DNA of 64,000 bases from the NCBI GenBank assembly GCA_964545065.1, contig CAZJEO010000001.1, positions 128,663 to 192,662 on the forward strand, in the 5' to 3' direction. Below, piece after piece: positions 5,254 to 25,848 of the stretch. How positions within the stretch are numbered: position 1 is the first letter of the stretch; every line of letters begins with the position of its first letter. This stretch comes from Candidatus Woesearchaeota archaeon (GTDB lineage: Archaea; Nanobdellota; Nanobdellia; Pacearchaeales; GW2011-AR1). Under the pieces are notes generated by a model that searched no databases, was not told the origin of the DNA, and was given only the letters and a program-made list of their open reading frames with translations. The position numbers and the translations under genes were made by a program.

Positions 5254-7743
5254 ATGAAAAAAATATATAAAATAGAAGGAATTACTTGTGCTAGTTGTGC
5301 TGGGCATATAGAAAGGGCCGTGAAGAAAATTAAAGGTGTAACAAATGCAAGTGTGAATTTTGCTAACAAAAAAGCATATATTGAAGGAGATTTTAATGAT
5401 AATGAGATAAAAGAATCTGTTTCTAAAATTGGTAATTATAAAGCAATATCAGAAGATGAAAAAGATAGTGAGGTTAAAAAAGAAGGAAAAGATTCTGGAA
5501 AAGAACAAACAACGACTTTTACTGTTAAAGGTTTAGATAATCCTCATTGTAGTATGACTGTTGAAAAAGCTGTTAAAAAATTGAAAGGTATTGGTAAGGT
5601 TGATATTAATATTAATACTCACAAGGCTAAAATTACTCATTCAATTCCTAAAGAGGAAATAATCAAAGCAATAAATGATGCAGGTTATGAAGTTTTGAAA
5701 GAAAGTGAAGATGAAAAAGATTCGGAAATTAAAGAGATGAACAAGGCTAAAAAAAGAATGTGGTATGCTTGGATATTTGCTTTGCCTGTTGGTATATTAA
5801 TGATTTTGGAAATGTTCACTAAATTGGAAGTTCCTTATATTGATTATATTTTTGTTTTAGCTGCTATCCCTGTTTTGTTTATTTTTGGTTGGAAGACTTA
5901 TGTTTCTGGGTTGAAGTCTGCAAGGTATCTTGCATTTAATATGGACTTCTTAATTATGCTTGGAACATTTGCAGCATTTATTACTGGGATAATCGGGTTT
6001 TTTCTTCCTATAGAAAATTATGCTGCAATAGCCGCAATGATTATGGCTTTTCATTTGACAGGGAGATATGTTGAAGCTAAGGCAAGAGGGAAAGCATCTG
6101 AAGCTATAAAAAAATTACTTGAGTTGGGTGTAAAAACTGCGGTGGTTATTAGAAATAATTCCCCAAGGGATGACTCCTCAAAGGATGACTCTGGTGAGCC
6201 GTCTGGTGAGCCTAAGGAAATTGAAATTCCTATTTCTGAAGTTAAGATTGGAGATGTGATGATTGTTAAACCAGGAGAAAAGATTCCTACAGATGGTATT
6301 GTTATTAAGGGTGAATCTGCGGTTGATGAATCAATGGTGAGTGGAGAGAGTATGCCTGTTGAAAAAATGAAGAATTCAAAAGTTATTGGAGCTACAGTTA
6401 ATCAAGATGGTGTTTTATATGTTAAGGCGGAGAAGATTGGTAAGGATACTTTTTTGTCTCAGGTTGTTAAGTTAGTTGAAGAGGCTCAAGGAAGTAAGAT
6501 TCCAATACAGGAATTTGCAGATAAGATTACTCGGTACTTTGTTCCTGTTGTTATTGTGGTAGCTGTTTTAACGATTTTCATCTGGCTTGTTTTTCCAGAA
6601 GTAATGCAAAGTATAGCTGGTTTTTTTGACTTTCTCCCTTGGATTAATTTTAATGTTGGGCATGTTGCTCTTGCATTATTTGCTGCAATAGCTGTTTTAG
6701 TTATTGCTTGTCCTTGTGCCTTGGGTCTTGCTACACCAACTGCATTAATGGTTGGTTCTGGTTTAGGAGCTGGGAAAGGTATCTTCATTAGAAGGGGGGA
6801 AGCTATTCAAACAATGAAGGAAATTAAGACTATTATGTTTGATAAAACTGGAACAATAACGAAAGGGAAACCAGAAGTTACAGATATTATTGGAGATGAA
6901 AAGCAGATCTTAAAGATAGCAGGTTCTGTTGAGAGTGTTTCAGAGCACCCTCTTTCTAAGGCAATTGTAAAAAGAGCTAAGGAAAAGAGAATTAAATTGT
7001 TAGAAGTTAAGAACTTTAAAGCTAAGAGAGGTAGAGGAATTGAAGCTAGTTTAGGAAGAAATAAAATTCTTATTGGAAATAGAAAATTAATGACTGAGAA
7101 TAAAATTAGTTTTGAAGGTTATGAAGATAGAATTATAGAACTTGAAAATGATGGTAAGACTGTTATGATTTTATCTGATAATGGCAAAGTTTTAGGGCTC
7201 ATAGCTGTTGCAGATACTTTGAAACAAGATGCTAAAAAAACTATTTCTGAATTAAAAGAAATGGGTCTTAAGACTGTTATAATTACAGGAGATAATGAAA
7301 GAACTGCTAAGGCCATTGCAAAGCAAGTTGGTATTGATTCTGTTTTAGCAGATGTGTTACCTGATGAAAAAATGAAGAAAGTTATGGAGCTTCAGAAGAC
7401 AGGAATGGTGGCTTTTGTTGGCGATGGTATTAATGATGCTCCTGCTTTGAAGCAGGCAAATGTTGGAATTGCGATTGGAACTGGAACAGATATTGCAATT
7501 GAATCGGGAGATATAATTCTTGCTAAGGGTGATTTGCAGGGAGTTGTTTCTGCAATTAAGTTAAGCAAGGAAACATTCAAGAAAATAAAACAAAACTTGT
7601 TCTGGGCTTTTGGTTATAATATTGTAGCTATCCCTCTTGCGATAATTGGAGTTTTGCATCCTGTGATTGCTGAGATAGCAATGGCGACTTCTTCATTGAC
7701 TGTTGTGGGGAATGCTAATCTTTTGAGAAGGAAGAAGATTTAG
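5254..7743 (+). CDS. copA: copper-translocating P1B-type ATPase with two N-terminal HMA domains
   Basis: [13 protein letters not shown] motif, [19 protein letters not shown] and GDGINDAP motifs. 829 aa. Confidence 0.9.
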
Positions 7744-7923
7744 GAAGAGAAGGGAATTTTAATTTGTTGGGAAGGGAGAGGATATAGGAAGAGAGGGAGA
7801 GGGGAATTTATGGATACCAAAATCTTTAATAAATCCTTAAAATAGCAGTTTTAAATTGATTTTATGCGGTTTATCTACAAAAGATAACGATAAATTTATA
7901 AATGCCCTTATCATGAATAATTT

Positions 7924-9162
7924 ATGATAATTGAAACATCTGTGGAAAATTATTTATCGATTAAAGAAAAAGTTACACTTAGCCTTGACTCTGGTTCTAG
8001 CAAAAAACTTTCAAATAATTTAGTAGAAATGCCTAAAAACGAAAGATTGCTCAAGTCTGCAGTAATTTACGGAGCAAATGCATCAGGAAAATCTAACATA
8101 ATAAAATCGGTCTTTTTTATTTGGAACATGGTTAAAAACTCTCACTTATTTAATGTTGATGTAAAAATTCCCCGAGTTCCCTTTAAATTAGAAGAAAGCT
8201 ATCTAAAAAAACCAAGTAAATTTGAGATAATATTTATTCATAATAAAATAAAATACAAATATGGTTTTTCATGTGATAATGATAAATTCATTGAAGAATA
8301 TTTATATTACTGGCCTCAAGGAAGAGAGTCTAAAATTTTTAGTAGAAAAAACTCAAAAGAATTTGATTTCACAATTGATAGAAAACAACAACAATTAATT
8401 AAATCGCAAACAAATGAAAATGTGCTATATCTTTCGAGAGCAACTCAATTAGGATATCAAGGAACCAAAGAAGCTTATGATTTTATAATAAATAATCTTG
8501 TTATAAATTATAGTCCCATGTGGGAAGAGATTACAATTAAAAAAATATATGAAGATAATAAATTAAAAAATAAGATTATTGAAATACTTCAAAAAGCAGA
8601 TTTTGGTGGCATAACAGACATTAAAGTTATCAAAGATAAAAGAAAAGTTGGAGGAATTGAGTTTAAATTTGAAAAAGAAAAGATACTATCCAATCCATTA
8701 AAACCAGAAGAACAAGAATTCTATGATTTCAAATTTGTTCATAAGACTAAAAGTGGAAAATTAATTGATTTTGCATTCAATGAAGAATCTAATGGTACGA
8801 GAAGGACACTCTCCATGCTTGGGCCAATATTTGAAATATTAGAACTAGGAAAAGTCGCATTCATTGATGAATTTGAATTAAATTTGCATTCCAACATTAC
8901 AAAGTTTTTAATAAAACTTTTTAATAGTAAATTAAATAAAAAAAATGCTCAATTAATTTTTACAACTCACGACACAACTTTGTTAGATAATGAAATATTT
9001 AGAAGAGATCAAATATATATTTGTTCAAAAGATAAAAATAACTCAAGTAAATTAAATTCTTATATCGATTACAATCTTAGAGAAGATTCTGACTTTGAAA
9101 GAGCTTATTTAAATGGAAGAGTGGGAGGACTTCCTTTTATAGATGAAACTTTATTCAATTAA
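7924..9162 (+). CDS. AAA_21-type ATPase (AbiLi/RloA-like) of a two-gene module
   Basis: Walker A VIYGANASGKSNIIKS. ABC-like Walker B/D-loop LIFTTHDTTLLD. About 400 aa, the typical partner of RloB proteins. Confidence 0.7.
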   Translation: MIIETSVENYLSIKEKVTLSLDSGSSKKLSNNLVEMPKNERLLKSAVIYGANASGKSNIIKSVFFIWNMVKNSHLFNVDVKIPRVPFKLEESYLKKPSKFEIIFIHNKIKYKYGFSCDNDKFIEEYLYYWPQGRESKIFSRKNSKEFDFTIDRKQQQLIKSQTNENVLYLSRATQLGYQGTKEAYDFIINNLVINYSPMWEEITIKKIYEDNKLKNKIIEILQKADFGGITDIKVIKDKRKVGGIEFKFEKEKILSNPLKPEEQEFYDFKFVHKTKSGKLIDFAFNEESNGTRRTLSMLGPIFEILELGKVAFIDEFELNLHSNITKFLIKLFNSKLNKKNAQLIFTTHDTTLLDNEIFRRDQIYICSKDKNNSSKLNSYIDYNLREDSDFERAYLNGRVGGLPFIDETLFN

Positions 9163-9164
9163 AA

Positions 9165-9770
9165 ATGGTGAGGAAAAGAGGGAGAAAACCCACAAACAAT
9201 CTTTGGATATTTTGTGAAGGTGAAAAAACAGAAATTAATTATTTTAGTAAATTAAAAACGCATGAAAGAATTTCTAGAATTAATATAAAAGTCAAGAGTG
9301 CAGATAAAATTACTGATGCTATTGGAGTTGTAAAATATGCCATTAGTTTTCTTCAAAATAAAAAAAGAGATTTTGAACCTGGTGATTTGATCTATTGCGT
9401 GCTTGATAGAGATGCTAACACAAATCAACATCTAGAAAAGGCATTAAAATTAGCAAACGAGAATGGTATCCTAATTATATTTTCTAACCCTTGTTTTGAA
9501 TATTGGATTCTTTGCCATTTTGAATATTTCATCACAACCTGTAATCCAGATGATATGATTAGAAAATTAAAGAAAAATTTAGGAATATATAGAAAGAATG
9601 ATTCGGATATTTACAAAAAGACGCAAGATAAAATAGCAATTGCGATAAGTAATGCTAAAAAAATTAAAGATACTCATGAAAAAAATGGGATCAAATTAAT
9701 TAGCCGAGAAAGTAATCCTTCAACATATGTTTTTGAATTGATTGAAAAGATTGAAGAATTAAGAGATTAA
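9165..9770 (+). CDS. RloB-like (AbiLii-like, TOPRIM/OLD-related) protein
   Basis: N-terminus WIFCEGEKTEINYF matches the RloB signature (CEGEKTEPNYF). Begins 3 nt after the ATPase stop. Confidence 0.7.
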   Translation: MVRKRGRKPTNNLWIFCEGEKTEINYFSKLKTHERISRINIKVKSADKITDAIGVVKYAISFLQNKKRDFEPGDLIYCVLDRDANTNQHLEKALKLANENGILIIFSNPCFEYWILCHFEYFITTCNPDDMIRKLKKNLGIYRKNDSDIYKKTQDKIAIAISNAKKIKDTHEKNGIKLISRESNPSTYVFELIEKIEELRD

Positions 9771-9797
9771 ATCTCAACACATCTTTTGATCTGCCTT

Positions 9798-11525
9798 TTA
9801 TAAAAAATCTATAAACTTTTTCAATCTAGACCTAATCGCATTTGGTTGCCTCTTAAATATTCTTGCTAATGTTTGAATTGGAACGTTTTTAGAAAACAAT
9901 TTTTTCAATTTTTCATCTTCTTCTTCATTCCAAGGTTCGTAAGCATTTGGAAATTCTTCTTTAATTTGATTTAATCTTTTATGATAATCTGTTTTTATGT
10001 TAAATTTCTTATCCACTATTCTTTTCTTAGCAGGAGTTATTATAGAATCAAGATTATTCTCTTGTGCATGTTTTTTAATAACTTCTAAAAATAAATCTCC
10101 AAATTTTTCTAACTTCTCTTCTCCAACTCCCCAAATTTCTAATAAAGTATCTTTATTTTTTGGGAAACAAGATGCCATTTCTTGTAAAGACTTATTTTGA
10201 AATATTGTATAAACTGGATTTCCATTGGCAAGATCTTTTCTTAAATTGCTTAATTTATTAAATAAATTTTGATCATAATCCCAAGTCATGATCTTTTCTT
10301 TTTCTTTAGTTTTCAGAAAATTGTCTCTCTCTATTTCTGGGAGTTCTAAACAGATATCACAGCCTTCACAATTATTCTCTAAAAAGTTTTCACCAAAATA
10401 TTCTAAGATATACTTTCTTCTACAAAAATTATGTTCGCAATAATCCATCATTTTTCTCAATTGATCTCTGCTCTTCTTTTGAGCAAATTCATCCATGATT
10501 TGTTTAATGAAAAATTCATGTTTCCTTTTATCTCCCCTTGAATAGAATAAAACGCAATCACTTGTAAGACCATCACGCCCAGCCCTACCAATCTCTTGAT
10601 AATAACTTTCAAGTGTTCTTGAAAAAGTATGATGAATAATCAACCTAACATCTGGCTTATCAATTCCCATTCCAAATGCAATTGTAGCCACAATAATATT
10701 TACTTTATTTTTAATAAATGATTCTTGATTCTGTTTTCTTGTTTCATTATTAAGTCCTGCATGGTATGGAAGAGCATTAAATCCATGTTCATTTAACTTT
10801 TGGGCAATATTTTCAGAATCTTTACGAGAAAAACAATAAATAATTATTGATCCATCTTTTTGTTTATTAATTAAATTTAAAATTTTATAGAATGTATCCT
10901 TTTTCTCCGTGACAATTAAATTAAGATTTTTTCTGTTAAAACTTGAAACAAATATTGCTGGATTTTTTAGAGATAATTGTTTTAATATATCTTTTCTTAC
11001 TTTTTCTGTGGCTGTTGCAGTTAAAGCAATTATAGGAATTTTTGGAAAAATTATTTTCAGAAATTTTAAATTTCTATATTCTTGTCTAAAATCATGCCCC
11101 CATTCAGAAATACAATGAGCTTCATCAATAGCAATTAAATTTATTTCCAACCTTAATAAAAATAATTTGAATTCTTCTAAAGCTAATCTTTCAGGAGCAA
11201 TATAAAGAATCTTTGTTTCTTTCTTTTCTATTTTTTCTTGGATATTCTGCATTTCTTCAGGTGATAGTGAGGAGTTAATATATTCAGCATTAATTCCTTT
11301 TATCTTGAGAGCGTCTACTTGATCTTTCATAAGAGAAATAAGAGGAGATATAACAAGTGTAAGTCCTTCAAATTTTAATGCGGGAAGTTGATAACAAAGA
11401 GATTTTCCTCCCCCAGTTGACATAAGGACAAACGTATCTTTCTTTTTGAGAACATTTTTTATAATATCTTCTTGCATTGGTTTAAAGTCATCATGGCCAA
11501 AATATTTCTTTAGTAATGTCCTCAT
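9798..11525 (-). CDS. recQ: RecQ-family ATP-dependent DNA helicase
   Basis: Helicase motifs (GGGKS, DEAH as IAIDEAHCISEWGHDFR). Zn-binding and RQC region (CRRK...CDIC). C-terminal HRDC-like segment. Confidence 0.85.
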   Translation of the reverse strand: MRTLLKKYFGHDDFKPMQEDIIKNVLKKKDTFVLMSTGGGKSLCYQLPALKFEGLTLVISPLISLMKDQVDALKIKGINAEYINSSLSPEEMQNIQEKIEKKETKILYIAPERLALEEFKLFLLRLEINLIAIDEAHCISEWGHDFRQEYRNLKFLKIIFPKIPIIALTATATEKVRKDILKQLSLKNPAIFVSSFNRKNLNLIVTEKKDTFYKILNLINKQKDGSIIIYCFSRKDSENIAQKLNEHGFNALPYHAGLNNETRKQNQESFIKNKVNIIVATIAFGMGIDKPDVRLIIHHTFSRTLESYYQEIGRAGRDGLTSDCVLFYSRGDKRKHEFFIKQIMDEFAQKKSRDQLRKMMDYCEHNFCRRKYILEYFGENFLENNCEGCDICLELPEIERDNFLKTKEKEKIMTWDYDQNLFNKLSNLRKDLANGNPVYTIFQNKSLQEMASCFPKNKDTLLEIWGVGEEKLEKFGDLFLEVIKKHAQENNLDSIITPAKKRIVDKKFNIKTDYHKRLNQIKEEFPNAYEPWNEEEDEKLKKLFSKNVPIQTLARIFKRQPNAIRSRLKKFIDFL

Positions 11526-11621: not shown

Positions 11622-12521
11622 ATGCTAAGAAAAATACTGCTAATGGGAATTATTGTGATATTTCTCATGTCAATAGTGCCAATAGTATCGGCAATGGAGC
11701 TTACAGGATATTGTGTTAAGTGTAAAGAAAAGACAGAAATGAACAAGGCAGAACTGGTTGAAGGCATAGCCTCGGATGCAGGGTTAACAAAAGCCGATGC
11801 AAGAAGATCCAAATATTCAAATATTGTACTTAAACGAGGCTCAGTTTTTTCTCCTGATAACGGGGAAGACATCCCACAAATGAACAAGGCAGAACTAATT
11901 GAAGCAATTGCTTCATCTGCGAATCTTCCAGAAGCTGATACCGAAAGAGCTTTAGACGCCTTTGTCGGCGCCACTACTAAATCGCTAAGGGGCGGTAATA
12001 GAGTAGCTTTAGTCGGATTCGGTTCTTTCTCAATTTCTAAGCGTAAAGCAAGGACCGGAAGAAATCCTCAAGCAGTTGTAAATGGAGCCGTTAACCCAGG
12101 AATAGAACTTGTAAGAGGAGTTGTAGAATTCAAAGCTGGCGACAGACCTTTTCTGCCTAATGTGGAATATACTACAACAGAAGATATTGCAACAGAAATG
12201 GTCAGTATGAGTCTTAGTGGAGATATCGGCGAACAACAAGGTCTCACCGAAGAACAAGCGAGGCAGTTCATGGACAGTTTCGTAAATGTGACCCTGAGCA
12301 CACTCCAAACAGGAATAGCAGTAAATGTGGGTGAGGATTTTGGAACATTTAGTGTTACATTGAGCAATGCTAAAATTCATGAAACAAAAAATGGAAAAAC
12401 AATTCGGACGCCACCAATAGGACATGTTGACCATGGGAAAGACATACCACTTATAGGTGATAAACTTCAAAAGGTGGTTAAATTCAAAGCTGGCGCAGAT
12501 CTTGCCAAGACGGTGGCTTAG
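11622..12521 (+). CDS. exported tandem HU/IHF-like (DNABII) DNA-binding protein with an N-terminal signal peptide
   Basis: Signal peptide [25 protein letters not shown] truncated HU N-segment ([12 protein letters not shown]) is followed by a full HU domain ([12 protein letters not shown]...LVGFGSF...RTGRNPQ) and a second HU-like domain ([13 protein letters not shown]...GEDFGTFSV...VKFKAGADL). Local GC is clearly higher than in neighbouring genes. Confidence 0.6.
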
Positions 12522-16653: not shown

Positions 16654-17088
16654 ATGGATTGTCCATATTGTGAGGACAGCAAATCCAAAGTGACGAACAA
16701 ACGTAAGTCGCTCGATTCCATAAGACGAAGAAGAGAATGTCTAAAATGTGGAAAGAGATTCACGACTTATGAAACAATCGCCAGAGAAGATTTGTATGTT
16801 GTCAAAAAAGATAAGAGCAGAGAAAAGTTTAGTGTGGAAAAACTTGCTGCTGGAATAGAAAAGGCGTTTGAGAAACGTCCGGTTGCAAAAGAGGAAATTG
16901 ACAAAATGATACATGAGATTGAAGAACAATTGAGGAAAAAGGGGAAGGAAGTTAAGAGTTCTGTTATCGGAGAGTTGATTATGCGAAAGATTAAGAAGCT
17001 TGACAATGTTGCGTTCATTAGATTTGCTTCTGTTTATAGAGATTTTCAAGATGTTAAAGATTTTAGAAAGGAGTTGAAGGAGTTATAA
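16654..17088 (+). CDS. nrdR: transcriptional repressor NrdR (zinc ribbon + ATP-cone)
   Basis: MDCPYCEDSKSKVTNKR...RRRECLKCGKRFTTYE followed by an ATP-cone. Confidence 0.85.
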   Translation: MDCPYCEDSKSKVTNKRKSLDSIRRRRECLKCGKRFTTYETIAREDLYVVKKDKSREKFSVEKLAAGIEKAFEKRPVAKEEIDKMIHEIEEQLRKKGKEVKSSVIGELIMRKIKKLDNVAFIRFASVYRDFQDVKDFRKELKEL

Positions 17089-19124
17089 TGGTAGGAAAAG
17101 TGAGGAAGAGGGATGGGAGTGTTGTTCTTTTTCAGCATGAGAAAATTACAGAAGCGATCTGGAAAGCTGTAAAGGCTGTTGGGGGGCATGACAGAGAAAA
17201 GGCAGAATACTTGTCTAATTTAGTAACAAGTAATCTTGGAAAAAAGCATGGGGATTTAGAGATTCCTGAAGTAGAAGAAGTCCAGGATATGGTTGAAAAA
17301 ACTTTAATTGAAGAGGGGCATGCAAAGGTAGCTAAAGCGTATATTCTTTATCGTAAGAGTCATGAAGAACTCAGGCAGGTTAAAGGATTGTTTGATACAA
17401 TTGAAGCTGTTGACGATTATATAGGATTAAATGATTGGATGGTGAAAGAGAATTCAAACATGGCTTTTTCCTTGCAGGGTTTAAACAATTATGTTGCTAC
17501 TAAGATTATAAGTAATTACTGGATTAGAAGAATTTATCCGGAAGCCATAAGAGAGGCACATGAAAACACTGATTTTCATATACATGATTTAGGAACTCTC
17601 GGGGCTTATTGTGTTGGGTGGGACTTAAAAGATTTATTAATTACTGGGTTTAAGGGTGTGCCTGGAAAGCTAGCGTGCAAGCCTCCAAAACATTTCAGTG
17701 CTGCCTTGGGCCAAATCGTTAATTTCTTTTACACATTGCAAGGAGAAAGTGCAGGAGCCCAAGCATTTTCAAATTTTGATACTCTTTTAGCTCCTTTTGT
17801 AAGGTATGATAATTTAGATTATCAGCAAGTTAAAAAACTTATCAAATCTTTTTTATTTAATATGGCTGTTCCCACAAGGGTTGGATTCCAGACACCTTTT
17901 ACAAATCTTACAATGGATTTGAAAGTTCCAGGATACATGAAAGATGAACCAGTTATTGTTGATGGAAAAATCCAAAAAGAAACATACAAAGAATTTGAAA
18001 CAGAAATGGACATGATTAACAGAGGTTTTGCAGAAGCTATGTTGGAAGGAGATTCTGAGGGAAGGGTCTTTACTTTTCCTATTCCGACTTATAATATTAC
18101 AAAAGATTTTGACTGGGATAATCCAATTTATGAACCACTCTGGGAGATGACTGCAAAATATGGTATACCTTATTTTTCTAATTTTATTAATTCAGATATG
18201 AAACCAGAAGATGCGAGAAGTATGTGTTGTAGATTAAGAATCGACAATACTGAATTAAGAAAAAGGGGAGGGGGGCTTTTTGGAAGTAATCCTTTGACAG
18301 GTTCAATAGGAGTTGTTACAATAAATATGGCTAGAATAGGATTTACTTCCATAGATGAAAAGATTTTCTTAGAAAAACTTTCAAATTTAATGGAACTTGC
18401 GAAAGAAAGTTTAGAGATAAAGAGAAAAGCACTGGAAAAATTTACAGAGATTGGATTATATCCTTATTCTCAGTTTTATTTAAGGAATTTAAAAAAAGCA
18501 TTTGGAGAATATTGGAAAAATCATTTTTCTACAATTGGGTTATTAGGAATGAACGAGGCAATTGTTAATTTTATGCCTGGGGAAAATATAGCCACAGAAA
18601 AAGGAAAAGGGTTTACAATGAAAGTTCTGGAATTTATGAGAGAAAAATTAGAAGAATATCAGAAAGAGACAGGAAATATATATAATCTTGAAGCGACTCC
18701 TGGGGAAGGAACAGCGTATAGATTTGCGAGAAATGATAAAAAAAGATTTGGGAGAATTATTGTGGCTAATGAGAAAATGGTAAGGAGCAATGAAGCGAAA
18801 CCTTATTATACGAATTCGACGCAACTTCCTGTGAATTATACTGATGATTTATTTGAAGCATTAGAATTACAGGATGACTTGCAAACACAATATACCGGGG
18901 GAACAGTTCTTCATAGTTTTGTTGGTGAAAAACTAGATAAAGAAGGAGTAAAATTATTGATTAAAAAAATTGCAGAAAGTTTCAAACTTCCTTATTTTAC
19001 ACTAACTCCAACTTTTTCAATCTGTCCTAAACATGGCTATCTTCATGGGGAGCATGAATATTGTCCTAAGTGTGATCAAGAAAATGGATATGTTGAAAAA
19101 CAGATTGAAACTAAATTTAAATAG
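17088..19124 (+). CDS. nrdD: anaerobic (class III) ribonucleoside-triphosphate reductase large protein, lacking the glycyl-radical C-terminus
   Basis: N-terminal ATP-cone (VRKRDGSVVLFQHEKI). Class III core. C-terminal Cys/His zinc-binding segment CPKHG...CPKCD. The ORF ends just before the expected glycyl-radical motif. Confidence 0.85.
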   Translation: MVGKVRKRDGSVVLFQHEKITEAIWKAVKAVGGHDREKAEYLSNLVTSNLGKKHGDLEIPEVEEVQDMVEKTLIEEGHAKVAKAYILYRKSHEELRQVKGLFDTIEAVDDYIGLNDWMVKENSNMAFSLQGLNNYVATKIISNYWIRRIYPEAIREAHENTDFHIHDLGTLGAYCVGWDLKDLLITGFKGVPGKLACKPPKHFSAALGQIVNFFYTLQGESAGAQAFSNFDTLLAPFVRYDNLDYQQVKKLIKSFLFNMAVPTRVGFQTPFTNLTMDLKVPGYMKDEPVIVDGKIQKETYKEFETEMDMINRGFAEAMLEGDSEGRVFTFPIPTYNITKDFDWDNPIYEPLWEMTAKYGIPYFSNFINSDMKPEDARSMCCRLRIDNTELRKRGGGLFGSNPLTGSIGVVTINMARIGFTSIDEKIFLEKLSNLMELAKESLEIKRKALEKFTEIGLYPYSQFYLRNLKKAFGEYWKNHFSTIGLLGMNEAIVNFMPGENIATEKGKGFTMKVLEFMREKLEEYQKETGNIYNLEATPGEGTAYRFARNDKKRFGRIIVANEKMVRSNEAKPYYTNSTQLPVNYTDDLFEALELQDDLQTQYTGGTVLHSFVGEKLDKEGVKLLIKKIAESFKLPYFTLTPTFSICPKHGYLHGEHEYCPKCDQENGYVEKQIETKFK

Positions 19125-23583: not shown

Positions 23584-25848
23584 ATGGATATGAAAACACC
23601 AAACCAAAATAGCAAACATGTAAAATTGACTAATATGCTTAAGAAATTAAGAATAATTGGTAATTCAGAAACCTATGAAAATATGAAAGACCGTGTTTTT
23701 AGTATCGTTACTAGCGAAGAAATTAAGTACGGGTCTAGTAAACAACAAATACAAGAATACAAACAAAAAATGATGAATCGATTGGAAAGTCAAGAATTTG
23801 TGCCTAGTTCAATTATCCTTACTAATGCTGGAAGATACGAAGATAAACCTTTAGCAGCATGTTCTGTGCCTCCAATAAATTTAAAGGAGGATTATTCAAA
23901 AATAAAACAAATCGTTGACATTTATCATGAAAAGGGAATGGGAACTGGTTTTAACTTTGATGAAACAGAAGATCCTGTTGAAATGCTAGAATTTTTAAAC
24001 GATATCGCAATAGAAGGCCAAAACAATGGCTTGCAAGACAGACCTGTGGGAAATATGGGAATTATTTCTAGTGATCATCCCAAGATATATAACCTAATCA
24101 AATACAAGGATGGGAAGAATAAAAATCGGGAATGGATTTTTAATATTTCTGTTAACTTAAAAGAAGATTTTATGGCTGCATTGCAAAATGGAGAAGATTA
24201 TCGGCTTAAAGATGGTACGATAATAAATCCAAATGATTTGTTTAATGAAATTTCAAAATCTGCTTGTTCCTGTGGAGATCCTGGAATATTTTTCATGAAG
24301 AGATTTAATCAAGATAACCCTGCTCCAAAATTAGGGGAATATAAGTCACTTGCTCCGTGCGGAGAAGTTGCACTTGCTGAAGGTGAAACGTGTCAATTTT
24401 CTTATATTAATATATCCAAGTTTGTTAAAAATAAAAAAATAGATTACGACTCTCTAAAAGATGTAATCTATGATGGAGTAAGATTTTTAGATGATACCTT
24501 GGATATAAGTATTAGCAGATATGGTAATAGAAAAAGTGAAAATATAATGAACCAAAAAAGAAAAATTGGATTAGGTATTTGTGGTCTTGCTGATGTGTTT
24601 ATTAAATGCGGGATTCCTTATGATTCCGAAGAAGCCTTAGACCTAAGTGCTGATTTAATGAGTTTTATTACTTATAATTCAAAAAAAGCGTCTATTAAAC
24701 TAGGTAAAGAAAGAGGTATTGCGCCTGCTTTTGAAAAATCTAAATTAAAACAAGATTTTATTGAAAAAAAATATGGTAAATATGCAACAAATACTGTGGG
24801 TAAACAAGACTGGAAAAATTTAAGTGAGGAAATTAAAGCAAAAGGTATCAGAAATATGATTACTACTATTCTACCACCAACAGGAAGAAGCTCCATGATA
24901 ATTTATGCTTCTCCTGCGATTGAGCCAATCTTTTCTTTAGAATTAAATGATGAAATGCGAAGAGATTTGATGAATAAGTTAAAGAAAAGAGGGCTGCCTT
25001 TTGAAAATTTACCAACTACCATCAATAAAAAAGACCTCCCTTCTGATTTAAAGGAGATATATAAAACTTGTTTAGAAATTGACCCAATTTCTCAGATAAA
25101 AATATGCTCTGCTCTTCAGAAATTCACCGACGGAGCAATTTCTAAAACCATAAACATTAATTCTACGTCTACTCCTAATGACATAAGAAAGATTTATCTA
25201 CAAGCATATGAAATGGGATTAAAAGGCATTACTATTTATCGGGATGGCAGTAAAAATCTTCAACCAATGAAATTGCAAAAAGGAGGTAAAATGGAAATTG
25301 AATTAAGGGCTTTTGTTAAAGATTTTGATCCTGTTAAAAATTGTTTGAAAGAAATTGGTGCACATAAAACTGACGAAACAGAAATTGAAGATATTTGGAT
25401 TTGTGACAAAAATATAACAAATTATGAAGATGCAAAGATGAATAAGGTTGGTTCTTATGGTCTTAGATTTAGGATTCAAAAAGGTAGGGCAAATGAAATT
25501 TGTATTAAAACTATCATCAACGAAAAGGATCACCAGATTTTTAGCGAATATGAAACAAGTTTTGATGATCTTGAACAAATGAAAAATATATTTAAGATTC
25601 TTGGCTTTAAGATATTTTGTGTGTTAAAGAAAAAGCGAGAAACATATTCTTTTAAAAATATGAAAATTAACTTGGAAGATATTGAAGGATTTAAATCTTG
25701 TATTGAAATTGAAATCTTAGGAGAAGATAATTTTGAAGAAAAGAAGAAGAAACTACATGAGATAATGGATATTTTAAAAATAAATAAGGAAGACAGAATT
25801 AATACAAGTATTACATCCCTATTTATGGAAGAAAATTCTTTCAAATAA
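23584..25848 (+). CDS. nrdJ: class II (B12-dependent-type) ribonucleotide reductase fused to a C-terminal CYTH (CyaB-like triphosphate tunnel) domain
   Basis: RNR active-site region LAPCGEVAL and TTILPPTGRSS. C-terminal ~190 aa starting MEIELRAFVKDFD with EIEIL match the CYTH domain pattern. No nrdB nearby. Confidence 0.65.
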   Translation: MDMKTPNQNSKHVKLTNMLKKLRIIGNSETYENMKDRVFSIVTSEEIKYGSSKQQIQEYKQKMMNRLESQEFVPSSIILTNAGRYEDKPLAACSVPPINLKEDYSKIKQIVDIYHEKGMGTGFNFDETEDPVEMLEFLNDIAIEGQNNGLQDRPVGNMGIISSDHPKIYNLIKYKDGKNKNREWIFNISVNLKEDFMAALQNGEDYRLKDGTIINPNDLFNEISKSACSCGDPGIFFMKRFNQDNPAPKLGEYKSLAPCGEVALAEGETCQFSYINISKFVKNKKIDYDSLKDVIYDGVRFLDDTLDISISRYGNRKSENIMNQKRKIGLGICGLADVFIKCGIPYDSEEALDLSADLMSFITYNSKKASIKLGKERGIAPAFEKSKLKQDFIEKKYGKYATNTVGKQDWKNLSEEIKAKGIRNMITTILPPTGRSSMIIYASPAIEPIFSLELNDEMRRDLMNKLKKRGLPFENLPTTINKKDLPSDLKEIYKTCLEIDPISQIKICSALQKFTDGAISKTININSTSTPNDIRKIYLQAYEMGLKGITIYRDGSKNLQPMKLQKGGKMEIELRAFVKDFDPVKNCLKEIGAHKTDETEIEDIWICDKNITNYEDAKMNKVGSYGLRFRIQKGRANEICIKTIINEKDHQIFSEYETSFDDLEQMKNIFKILGFKIFCVLKKKRETYSFKNMKINLEDIEGFKSCIEIEILGEDNFEEKKKKLHEIMDILKINKEDRINTSITSLFMEENSFK

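Follow-up and report, generated by a model that had tools for sequence, protein, structure and literature searches.

The 64,000-nucleotide stretch analysed here, referred to as the window throughout, stems from a Candidatus Woesearchaeota archaeon (GenBank assembly GCA_964545065.1, contig CAZJEO010000001.1, positions 128,663 to 192,662 of the forward strand). It contains two co-directional open reading frames (ORFs) at 7924-9162 and 9165-9770 on the plus strand, encoding proteins of 412 and 201 amino acids, that we assign to the AbiL/RloAB type of two-gene defence modules. The stop codon of the first gene (TAA, 9160-9162) is followed by two bases and then by the ATG of the second gene at 9165. 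The pair is preceded by the gene for a copper-type P1B ATPase, copA (5254-7743, plus strand; Pfam domains E1-E2_ATPase, HMA and Hydrolase), and followed by a convergent gene for RecQ (9798-11525, minus strand; DEAD, Helicase_C, RecQ_Zn_bind and HRDC), whose stop codon at 9798 on the opposite strand lies beyond the right edge of the cassette delimited below. A preliminary description, made by a model from the letters of this DNA, had placed an ATPase gene and an RloB-like gene between copA and recQ, and its coordinates proved exact. In the following, L-numbers (L001, L004 and so on) designate comparison loci, while P0002, P0003 and P0008 are relatives of the ATPase. The features are:

7708-7809, plus strand: 44-nt tandem repeat built from the 3' end of copA; part of the flank, outside the cassette
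7818-7923, plus strand: 5' non-coding region of the cassette; homology starts at 7818 (L007) or at 7830 (L004/L005)
7865-7879, plus strand: decayed operator-like element, TGCGGTTTATCTACA, with two core mismatches to TGCA-N7-TGCA
7888-7902, plus strand: putative archaeal core promoter, CGATAAATTTATAAA, consisting of a B recognition element (BRE)-like sequence and a TATA box
7924-9162, plus strand: abiLi, AAA_21/AAA_15-type ABC ATPase, 412 amino acids (Pfam and PADLOC)
9165-9770, plus strand: abiLii/rloB, RloB-family predicted TOPRIM-like nuclease, 201 amino acids (Pfam, PADLOC and conserved alignment columns)
9771-9775, plus strand: right cassette edge, where homology to other contexts stops at most 5 nt past the rloB stop codon

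The 201-residue protein matches the Pfam profile RloB (PF13707) with an E-value of 1.4e-42 over positions 3-195 of 195, and its sole PADLOC match is AbiLii (PDLC02337, 4.4e-28), so that the assignment to RloB made in the preliminary description is borne out. The 412-residue protein matches AAA_21 over the full profile length (6.5e-37) and AAA_15 and SMC_N more weakly. The best of its 35 PADLOC matches is AbiLi (PDLC02335, 3.7e-87), followed by an AriA-type profile (9.7e-36). What PADLOC defines as AbiL is found here: a match to the AbiLi profile, a match to the AbiLii/RloB profile and adjacent, co-directional genes with the ATPase gene first. In view of these matches, standard software for defence annotation would already assign the locus to AbiL; it evidently belongs to this known type and does not represent a new system.

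In an alignment of 40 AbiLi homologues with identities of 48-89%, residues G50, N52, G55, K56, Q156, E288, S289, G291, T292, D315, E316 and H349 are invariant. The set of ABC ATPase motifs is complete and conserved and comprises Walker A (G50-S57), a candidate Q-loop (Q156), a signature-like S289-x-G291-T292, Walker B (D315-E316) and the H-loop (H349). Both ATPase motifs quoted earlier are present: GANASGKSN corresponds to residues 50-58 and LIFTTHDTTL includes H349. The AlphaFold2 model of AbiLi (predicted local distance difference test, pLDDT, 88.3) adopts a Rad50/SMC-like head fold and yielded 117 Foldseek matches in the PDB at E<=0.001. The top ones (template modelling (TM) scores 0.4-0.5, E-values of 1e-8 to 6e-11) are Rad50, SMC heads, PtuA of Septu/retron systems and the Thermus OLD protein 6p74. 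A long predicted beta-hairpin (residues 230-274), the tip of which has low confidence, is found where Rad50 and SMC proteins have their coiled coil. Sequence and profile searches of the PDB came back empty for both AbiLi and RloB, i.e. no solved structure of either family can be found by sequence.

The only NCBIfam match of the ATPase is to RecF. It is confined to the Walker A region and is far below threshold (E 0.0056; score 15.9 against a cutoff of 172). This match and the adjacency to recQ could be taken as indications of a RecF/RecR-like recombination-mediator pair that cooperates with RecQ in DNA repair, and RecR is indeed a TOPRIM protein. However, the pair is convergent with recQ, no RecR family match was obtained in Pfam, and adjacency to RecQ is missing in the three closest RecQ relatives as well as in all close homologues of the pair. 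On the grounds of context and scores we rejected this explanation, which we consider extremely improbable.

The RloB protein features three conserved stretches, C17-E18-G19-x2-T22-E23, D81-R-D83 and S107-N-P-x-F-E112-x-W114. Among 42 aligned homologues, G19, T22, E23, Y26, D81, S107, E112, W114 and A160 are invariant, and C17, E18, D74, N108, P109 and H118 are, among others, nearly so. The motif that had been described as the hallmark N-terminus of the family is present; as the protein reads MVRKRGRKPTNNLWIFCEGEKTEINYF, it begins at residue 14 and not at the N-terminus. In the AlphaFold2 model (pLDDT 84.5) a core of the order b1(13-17)-a-b2-a-b3(75-81)-a-b4(103-107) is followed by a helical C-terminal half. 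Residue E18 is located after b1 and D81-R-D83 at the end of b3; this placement is the defining feature of TOPRIM. A single significant match was found in BFVD, a phage "RloB-like protein" (TM score 0.78), with primase and Toprim matches remaining non-significant.

A search with a degenerate pattern in one genome per species retrieved at least 558 RloB-family loci. The ten genomic members closest to the window copy come exclusively from archaea (Methanosarcina, Methanococcoides, Aenigmatarchaeota, Woesearchaeota, Nanoarchaeia; 45-56% RloB identity), and bacterial loci begin at identities of 38% and below. A bacterial-type RloB occurs in a few archaea (Methanoperedens, Methanomethylophilaceae and one Woesearchaeota), and a few proteins from metagenome-assembled genomes (MAGs) labelled "Firmicutes" group with the archaeal type, pointing at transfers in both directions. 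In 79 of 80 loci an AbiLi-type ATPase gene immediately precedes the RloB gene in the same orientation; the remaining locus is a 1-kb contig that is cut at this position. The same order was found in viruses: of 32 IMG/VR contigs, all of the bacterial type, 30 had loci that could be evaluated, and all 30 showed it. The order ATPase-then-RloB is thus essentially obligate across archaea, bacteria and viral contigs.

The preliminary description held such modules to be rarely noted in small-genome archaea. This is true of the surveys examined: AbiL is not mentioned in the consulted text of an archaeal defence census (PMC12988326), nor is it discussed in the consulted passages of an aquifer defensome study (PMC12259885). 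It does not hold for the sequence databases, where dozens of close homologues carry DPANN names. For DPANN archaea the two papers report few recognised defences beyond some Abi and single-gene systems.

Relatives of the ATPase in other genomic contexts (89%, 86% and 70% identity) are always followed by an RloB gene. The 89%-identical copy (P0002; L004/L005) is situated after two small ORFs 3' of the genes for rpS6e and eIF2-gamma, with LysE and UvrD/PDDEXK encoded downstream. The 86%-identical copy (P0003; L007) lies beside genes for type IV secretion system (T4SS)-like TrbC/TrbL/TraC proteins, a histone and a TrmB regulator. The 70%-identical copy (P0008; L008) follows a ParE toxin gene near the gene for LysRS. 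In blastn comparisons the window is 84.6-84.9% identical to L004/L005/L006, restricted to 7830/7869-9775, and 82.4% identical to L007, restricted to 7818-9760. Junction alignments showed that the DNA flanking the cassette is unrelated between contexts. The confinement of homology to 7818/7830-9760/9775 defines a mobile unit of about 1.95 kb that consists of about 100 bp of upstream DNA and the two genes; a recombinase gene is not part of it. That we are dealing with an AbiL-type mobile module can be stated with high confidence, and the window apparently holds a horizontally acquired cassette that landed between copA and recQ in a DPANN archaeon.

A comparison starting from RecQ is in line with this. 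None of the three RecQ proteins closest to that of the window (81%, 78% and 71% identity) is encoded next to an AbiL pair. The corresponding position is occupied by a type I restriction-modification (R-M) system and small ORFs in L009 (the closest, 81%), by a Bro-N protein in L011/L012 and by a T2SSE ATPase in L013. The preliminary description had proposed to look for absence of the locus from sister genomes, as expected for an island, and had named conservation of the pair as core genes in all relatives as an outcome that would speak against it; the differing contexts of the 89%, 86% and 70% relatives and the lack of the pair beside these RecQ proteins conform to the former, and conservation as core genes was not observed. 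The RecQ relatives come from metagenomes; a scan of species-representative genomes yielded no close ones. With RecQ identities of at most 81%, the loci compared are too divergent for gene order to be maintained, which is why no strictly syntenic empty copA-recQ site was found. The surroundings of RecQ in L009 encode a MazE-like protein together with an SLFN/AlbA_2-HATPase_c_4 protein, Fic, RadC, HsdM/HsdS of type I R-M and UvrD/PDDEXK. In this lineage, incoming DNA may have landed near recQ repeatedly. In L007 (1309-5891), the 86%-identical cassette is found about 4 kb from the T4SS-like genes (TrbC/T4SS pilin, TrbL and a TraC/VirB4-like ATPase) on the contig that also encodes the histone. These neighbours hint at a cassette that rides on a conjugative-type element.

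Convincing flanking or terminal inverted repeats were not found at the edges of the cassette. The left flank carries a 44-nt tandem repeat. Copy 1 (7708-7751) comprises the last 11 codons of copA, the TAG stop codon and 8 nt; copy 2 (7752-7795) encodes GNFNLLGRERI followed by TAG in the same frame and is 80-81% identical to copy 1; a third, incomplete copy reaches to approximately 7809. Tandem Repeats Finder reports a period of 44 with 2.1-2.3 copies and 77-81% matches, which is unique within the window (0 expected). The unusual purine-rich tract that had been noted upstream of the module (7744-7810) is real, with 79% purine as compared to 54% for the window, but it is a duplicated end of the copA gene rather than an independent signal. 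The array stops 10-20 nt 5' of the left edge of the cassette and may be an insertion scar or result from simple slippage. The 9-mer ATCTTTTGA is present in repeat copy 1 (7717-7725) and again 5 nt past the right edge of the cassette (9780-9788), and its occurrence on both sides may be due to chance.

The cassette travels with a putative promoter that has archaeal BRE/TATA features. The 15-mer CGATAAATTTATAAA does not vary between the window, L004, L007 and the 70%-identical L008 (alignment columns 189-203), and equally spaced TATA-like boxes are found in other archaeal-clade loci. As the TATA centre lies only about 25 nt 5' of the ATG, the abiLi transcript is probably leaderless or nearly so, and the location of the rloB ATG 2 nt past the abiLi stop codon suggests that the second gene is translated by coupling. 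A scan for bacterial signals gave fewer sigma-70-like sites than shuffled sequence and no intrinsic terminators; this is expected for an archaeon and renders that scan uninformative.

The motif TGCA-N7-TGCA occurs in many archaeal-clade loci immediately 5' of the TATA region (TGCAAAATTTTTGCA in a Methanosarcina example). The site aligned to the decayed element of the window is exact in the 89%-identical L004 (TGCAGTTTCTATGCA, approximately 8738-8752). Counted between positions -90 and -16 relative to the start of the ATPase gene, the motif occurs as follows:

archaeal-clade loci: exact in 6 of 14, with at most one mismatch in 9 of 14
bacterial loci: exact in 13 of 65, with at most one mismatch in 20 of 65
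viral loci: exact in 4 of 29, with at most one mismatch in 6 of 29
all AbiLi upstream regions: exact in 23 of 108, with at most one mismatch in 35 of 108
control, random 75-nt pieces from the same loci: exact in 0.09%, with at most one mismatch in 2.5%
control, regions upstream of 969 further ORFs of these loci: exact in 0.41%, with at most one mismatch in 2.6%

Carriers include L004, L017 (the cultured Methanosarcina sp. Mfa9), L022, L023, L025-L031, L062, L063, L076, L084, L113, L116, L122 and L125. As many of them are mutually related, these counts overstate the number of independent events; still, the element is present in the clearly separate lineages DPANN, Methanosarcinales, Desulfobacterota, Nitrosomonas, Coxiellaceae, Phycisphaerae and Nitrospira and in phage contigs. 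Its positions cluster at -58 to -61 in archaea (one at -69), at about -46 to -53 in bacterial genome loci and at -44 to -77 in the four exact viral-contig sites. In bacteria the second half-site merges into ATAAT (TGCAATAAT, resembling an extended -10 element), whereas in archaea the motif ends about 8 nt 5' of BRE/TATA. A description of this element was not found in the literature examined.

The cassette contains no regulator gene and its hosts belong to two domains of life, so that the simplest reading of the element is an operator for a cassette-encoded protein, and its location beside the core promoter suggests autoregulation. It is conceivable, and we put this forward tentatively, that AbiL/RloAB cassettes carry their own palindrome-like operator of 15 bp, which was kept across transfer between bacteria and archaea while the core promoter was swapped (TGCAATAAT for BRE/TATA), and that AbiLi, AbiLii or the complex of both binds DNA and autoregulates the operon. 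The same reserve applies to the proposal, made jointly with this one, that DPANN and Methanosarcinales have a distinct archaeal AbiL lineage in common.

An operator-like palindrome beside a promoter resembles the autoregulation of toxin-antitoxin (TA) systems, and the pair could be a selfish addiction cassette, kept because its loss kills the cell and without a real antiviral role in the host. According to PMC10440598, three pairs containing AAA ATPases act as toxin-antitoxin systems; TOPRIM_OLD toxins are part of no fewer than two of these. The cassette is moreover small, mobile and sometimes resident on DNA resembling mobile genetic elements (T4SS-like genes in L007, ParE nearby in L008), and the locus in the window is situated outside any defence island. 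On the other hand, AbiL as the founding member confers phage protection on Lactococcus (Deng 1999, in the account given by PMC13064643), and the pair is found within a type I R-M/OLD/Abi_C island (L015) and on 32 viral contigs, as are many defence systems. TA behaviour is also compatible with defence. A purely selfish role appears unlikely to us.

The two genes are evidently under strong purifying selection. Compared with the 89%- and 86%-identical relatives, abiLi has a ratio of non-synonymous to synonymous substitution rates (dN/dS) of 0.07-0.08 and rloB one of 0.13, at dS values of 0.76-1.05 across both genes. The decay of the operator-like element in the window copy and the streamlined nature of DPANN genomes might be seen as signs of an inactive remnant drifting to loss. 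Both ORFs are, however, of full length with all conserved motifs, and these dN/dS values (0.07-0.13) and the invariant core promoter led us to reject this explanation, to which we attach very little probability.

Flanks of 12 archaeal-clade loci contain mainly housekeeping genes and some defence genes. One of these loci, L015 (2-9711; Aenigmatarchaeota MAG JAGLVB010000006.1), encodes an OLD-like AAA_21+TOPRIM fusion, HsdS, an Abi_C/DUF7014 protein, AbiLi, AbiLii and HsdR in this order, which is the classical restriction-linked (Rlo) arrangement. The embedding of the pair between hsdS and hsdR in an archaeal-clade locus, the naming of RloA/RloB after their place in Campylobacter type I R-M loci (PMC10440598, PMC13064643) and the frequent association of AbiL with R-M reported by Makarova 2013 (PMC3632139) would fit a guard in the RloAB sense, which monitors R-M and fires upon viral inhibition as PARIS does upon Ocr. 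In the window, however, R-M genes are absent from the flanks of the pair, R-M is adjacent in only 2 of 80 loci (as judged with a single HsdM query of limited sensitivity), and housekeeping genes prevail around the archaeal-clade pairs. We consider a role as restriction guard rather improbable.

AbiL has been grouped with PARIS, OLD, Gabija and MADS as a system of ABC ATPase plus TOPRIM (PMC11464382; PMC12409363; bioRxiv 10.64898/2026.07.10.737580), a placement also made in PMC13064643. The kinship to OLD/PARIS-type abortive-infection systems asserted at the outset agrees with PMC11464382, PMC13064643 and PMC10440598 and with the AriA profile match. In PARIS, AriB is sequestered by AriA until Ocr is sensed and, once released, cleaves tRNA (PMC11464382, PMC12409363). 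P2 OLD has been reported as an abortive tRNase (bioRxiv 10.64898/2026.07.10.737580), and TOPRIM_OLD toxins are neutralised by AAA ATPases (PMC10440598). Whether AbiL/RloAB work in this manner is explicitly posed as an open question in PMC13064643.

Taking these systems as a guide, we propose that the locus probably constitutes an AbiL/RloAB-type defence module on a self-contained cassette, in which a TOPRIM-like nuclease is kept in check by a sensor ATPase. AbiLi, which belongs to the Rad50/SMC/OLD/PtuA kind of ABC ATPases, would oligomerise, bind AbiLii and hold it inactive. A viral cue would alter the state of the ATPase and thereby free or activate AbiLii, which would act as a metal-dependent TOPRIM-like nuclease via E18, D81/D83 and E112 and halt the infected cell, resulting in abortive infection or growth arrest. 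We lean towards this logic of sensor ATPase and nuclease effector when it is considered on its own. By analogy with PARIS AriB and P2 OLD, the two ATPase-plus-TOPRIM systems with a determined in-vivo target, the substrate would be RNA, specifically tRNA, and tRNA is our tentative choice as the target of AbiLii, favoured because it is the target of both of these proteins in vivo.

Activated AbiLii could also nick or degrade viral or host DNA instead of tRNA, as has been reported for Gabija GajA and in earlier in-vitro studies of OLD nucleases. TOPRIM is ancestrally a DNA-acting fold of topoisomerases, primases and RecR (Aravind 1998, as cited in PMC12409363), P2 OLD exhibited DNA exonuclease activity in biochemical work (PMC12409363), and the AbiLi model resembles the DNA-binding heads of Rad50 and SMC proteins. 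Against this, PARIS AriB and P2 OLD target tRNA in vivo while DNA stays intact, and lactococcal AbiL is tabulated as acting post-transcription (PMC13064643). In NetFlax (PMC10440598), translation-targeting labelling is reported for a toxin that is described just before the AAA/TOPRIM_OLD pairs and may or may not belong to one of them. On balance, an RNA or tRNA target is more likely than a DNA target, which we regard as doubtful.

Several points weigh against the reading as a tRNA-directed defence module with a TOPRIM-like effector. The substrate is assigned purely by analogy; the related Gabija GajA is usually regarded as DNA-acting, and we know of no experimental work on any archaeal AbiL or on the present clade. 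The TOPRIM fold of RloB was not recovered in that Foldseek gave no match for its model in the PDB at E<=0.001, and hhalign and hmmsearch were negative against the DnaG-like Toprim protein of the window and the OLD-like protein of L015. A permissive Pfam scan of 42 RloB homologues returned clan signals that are weak though coherent: DUF4276 in 5 of 42 (best 3.2e-5), OLD-like_TOPRIM in 3 of 42 and Toprim_2, Toprim_3 and Toprim in one or two. The kinship of RloB to TOPRIM is too remote for detection by HMMER or Foldseek here. The genes flanking the pair in the window, copA and recQ, are not defence genes, and the operator-like site is decayed in this copy. With a GC content of 0.26-0.28 the module lies under the mean of the window (0.326), but recQ is just as low (0.275), and base composition is thus no island marker.

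The closest known counterpart is AbiL from Lactococcus lactis (AbiLi plus AbiLii, pND861; Deng et al. 1999), with the same operon of an AAA_21/AAA_15 ABC ATPase gene followed by rloB and with AbiLi/AbiLii as best PADLOC models; the window copy differs by its archaeal host, its affiliation with the archaeal clade and a putative BRE/TATA-type promoter. RloA/RloB from Campylobacter jejuni have the same PF13707 second protein and the same ATPase partner and share the hsdS-...-hsdR embedding with L015, while the window pair stands alone between copA and recQ and lacks neighbouring R-M genes. PARIS resembles the window pair in the split into an ABC ATPase (AriA) and a small effector, which is of the TOPRIM type in the case of AriB, and is likely to be the model for the sequester-and-release logic and for the tRNA target (PMC11464382, PMC12409363). 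The effector encoded in the window is nevertheless RloB, with no DUF4435/AriB match in Pfam or PADLOC, and AriA is not among the top 50 structural matches of the AbiLi model. Sequence similarity between AbiLii and AriB has not been reported, and their predicted structures superimpose poorly (PMC13064643). OLD proteins (P2 Old, class 1; Gabija GajA, class 2) follow an ABC ATPase plus TOPRIM logic that is presumably the same, and OLD 6p74 matches the AbiLi model with an E-value of 1e-8. In the window, however, the two domains reside on separate ORFs and are not fused, i.e. the pair is split-OLD-like and not a member of class 1 or 2. PtuA of Septu and retron systems is among the best structural matches of AbiLi (8eea, 9nnb, 9kjx; E about 1e-9); its partner is the HNH nuclease PtuB, whereas that of AbiLi is RloB.

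The host is indeed a small-genome archaeon, as had been proposed. The window encodes Rpb2-/Rpb1-type RNA polymerase subunits, aEF-2 and aEF-1alpha, and the named closest homologues of the ATPase, RloB and RecQ come from Woesearchaeota, Nanoarchaeota, Pacearchaeota and Aenigmarchaeota. Identical proteins are encoded on the metagenomic scaffold ZHAO22-1 SAMN11268109 scaffold_81 (106.5 kb) and on an NCBI contig of 207.9 kb. Some further genes in the window deserve mention. A 299-residue protein (11622-12521, plus strand) has a hydrophobic, signal-like N-terminal segment followed by two HU-type DNA-binding domains (Bac_DNA_binding 1.7e-31 in two stretches; HU-HIG 3.6e-15), and the GC content of its gene (0.41) is well above that of its neighbours. 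A tandem HU protein that is possibly exported would be unusual for a DPANN archaeon. At 23584-25848 (plus strand), a ribonucleotide reductase large-subunit barrel (Ribonuc_red_lgC, 6.1e-85) is fused to a C-terminal CYTH (triphosphate tunnel) domain (3.3e-12). At approximately 16654-19124 (L001 18731-21201), the gene for an NrdR-like regulator (Zn_ribbon_NrdR plus ATP-cone) is located directly 5' of that for the anaerobic reductase NrdD; such regulators are typically bacterial and this one resides in an archaeal genome.

An AbiL pair in a DPANN genome will not surprise a specialist and, its operator being decayed, the window copy adds little to the testability of the AbiL mechanism. What goes beyond routine annotation is the archaeal lineage common to DPANN and Methanosarcinales, the delimitation of a cassette with a putative archaeal promoter of its own and the operator-like element that is found in both domains. 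AbiL/RloAB belong to the ABC ATPase plus TOPRIM defences; the delimited 1.95-kb unit and the operator-like element offer simple experimental handles. If the proposed autoregulation is true, AbiL would be a transcriptionally self-contained, domain-crossing, TA-like immune module. The compact cassette, maintained by selection, is a concrete and portable candidate for antiviral immunity in archaea.

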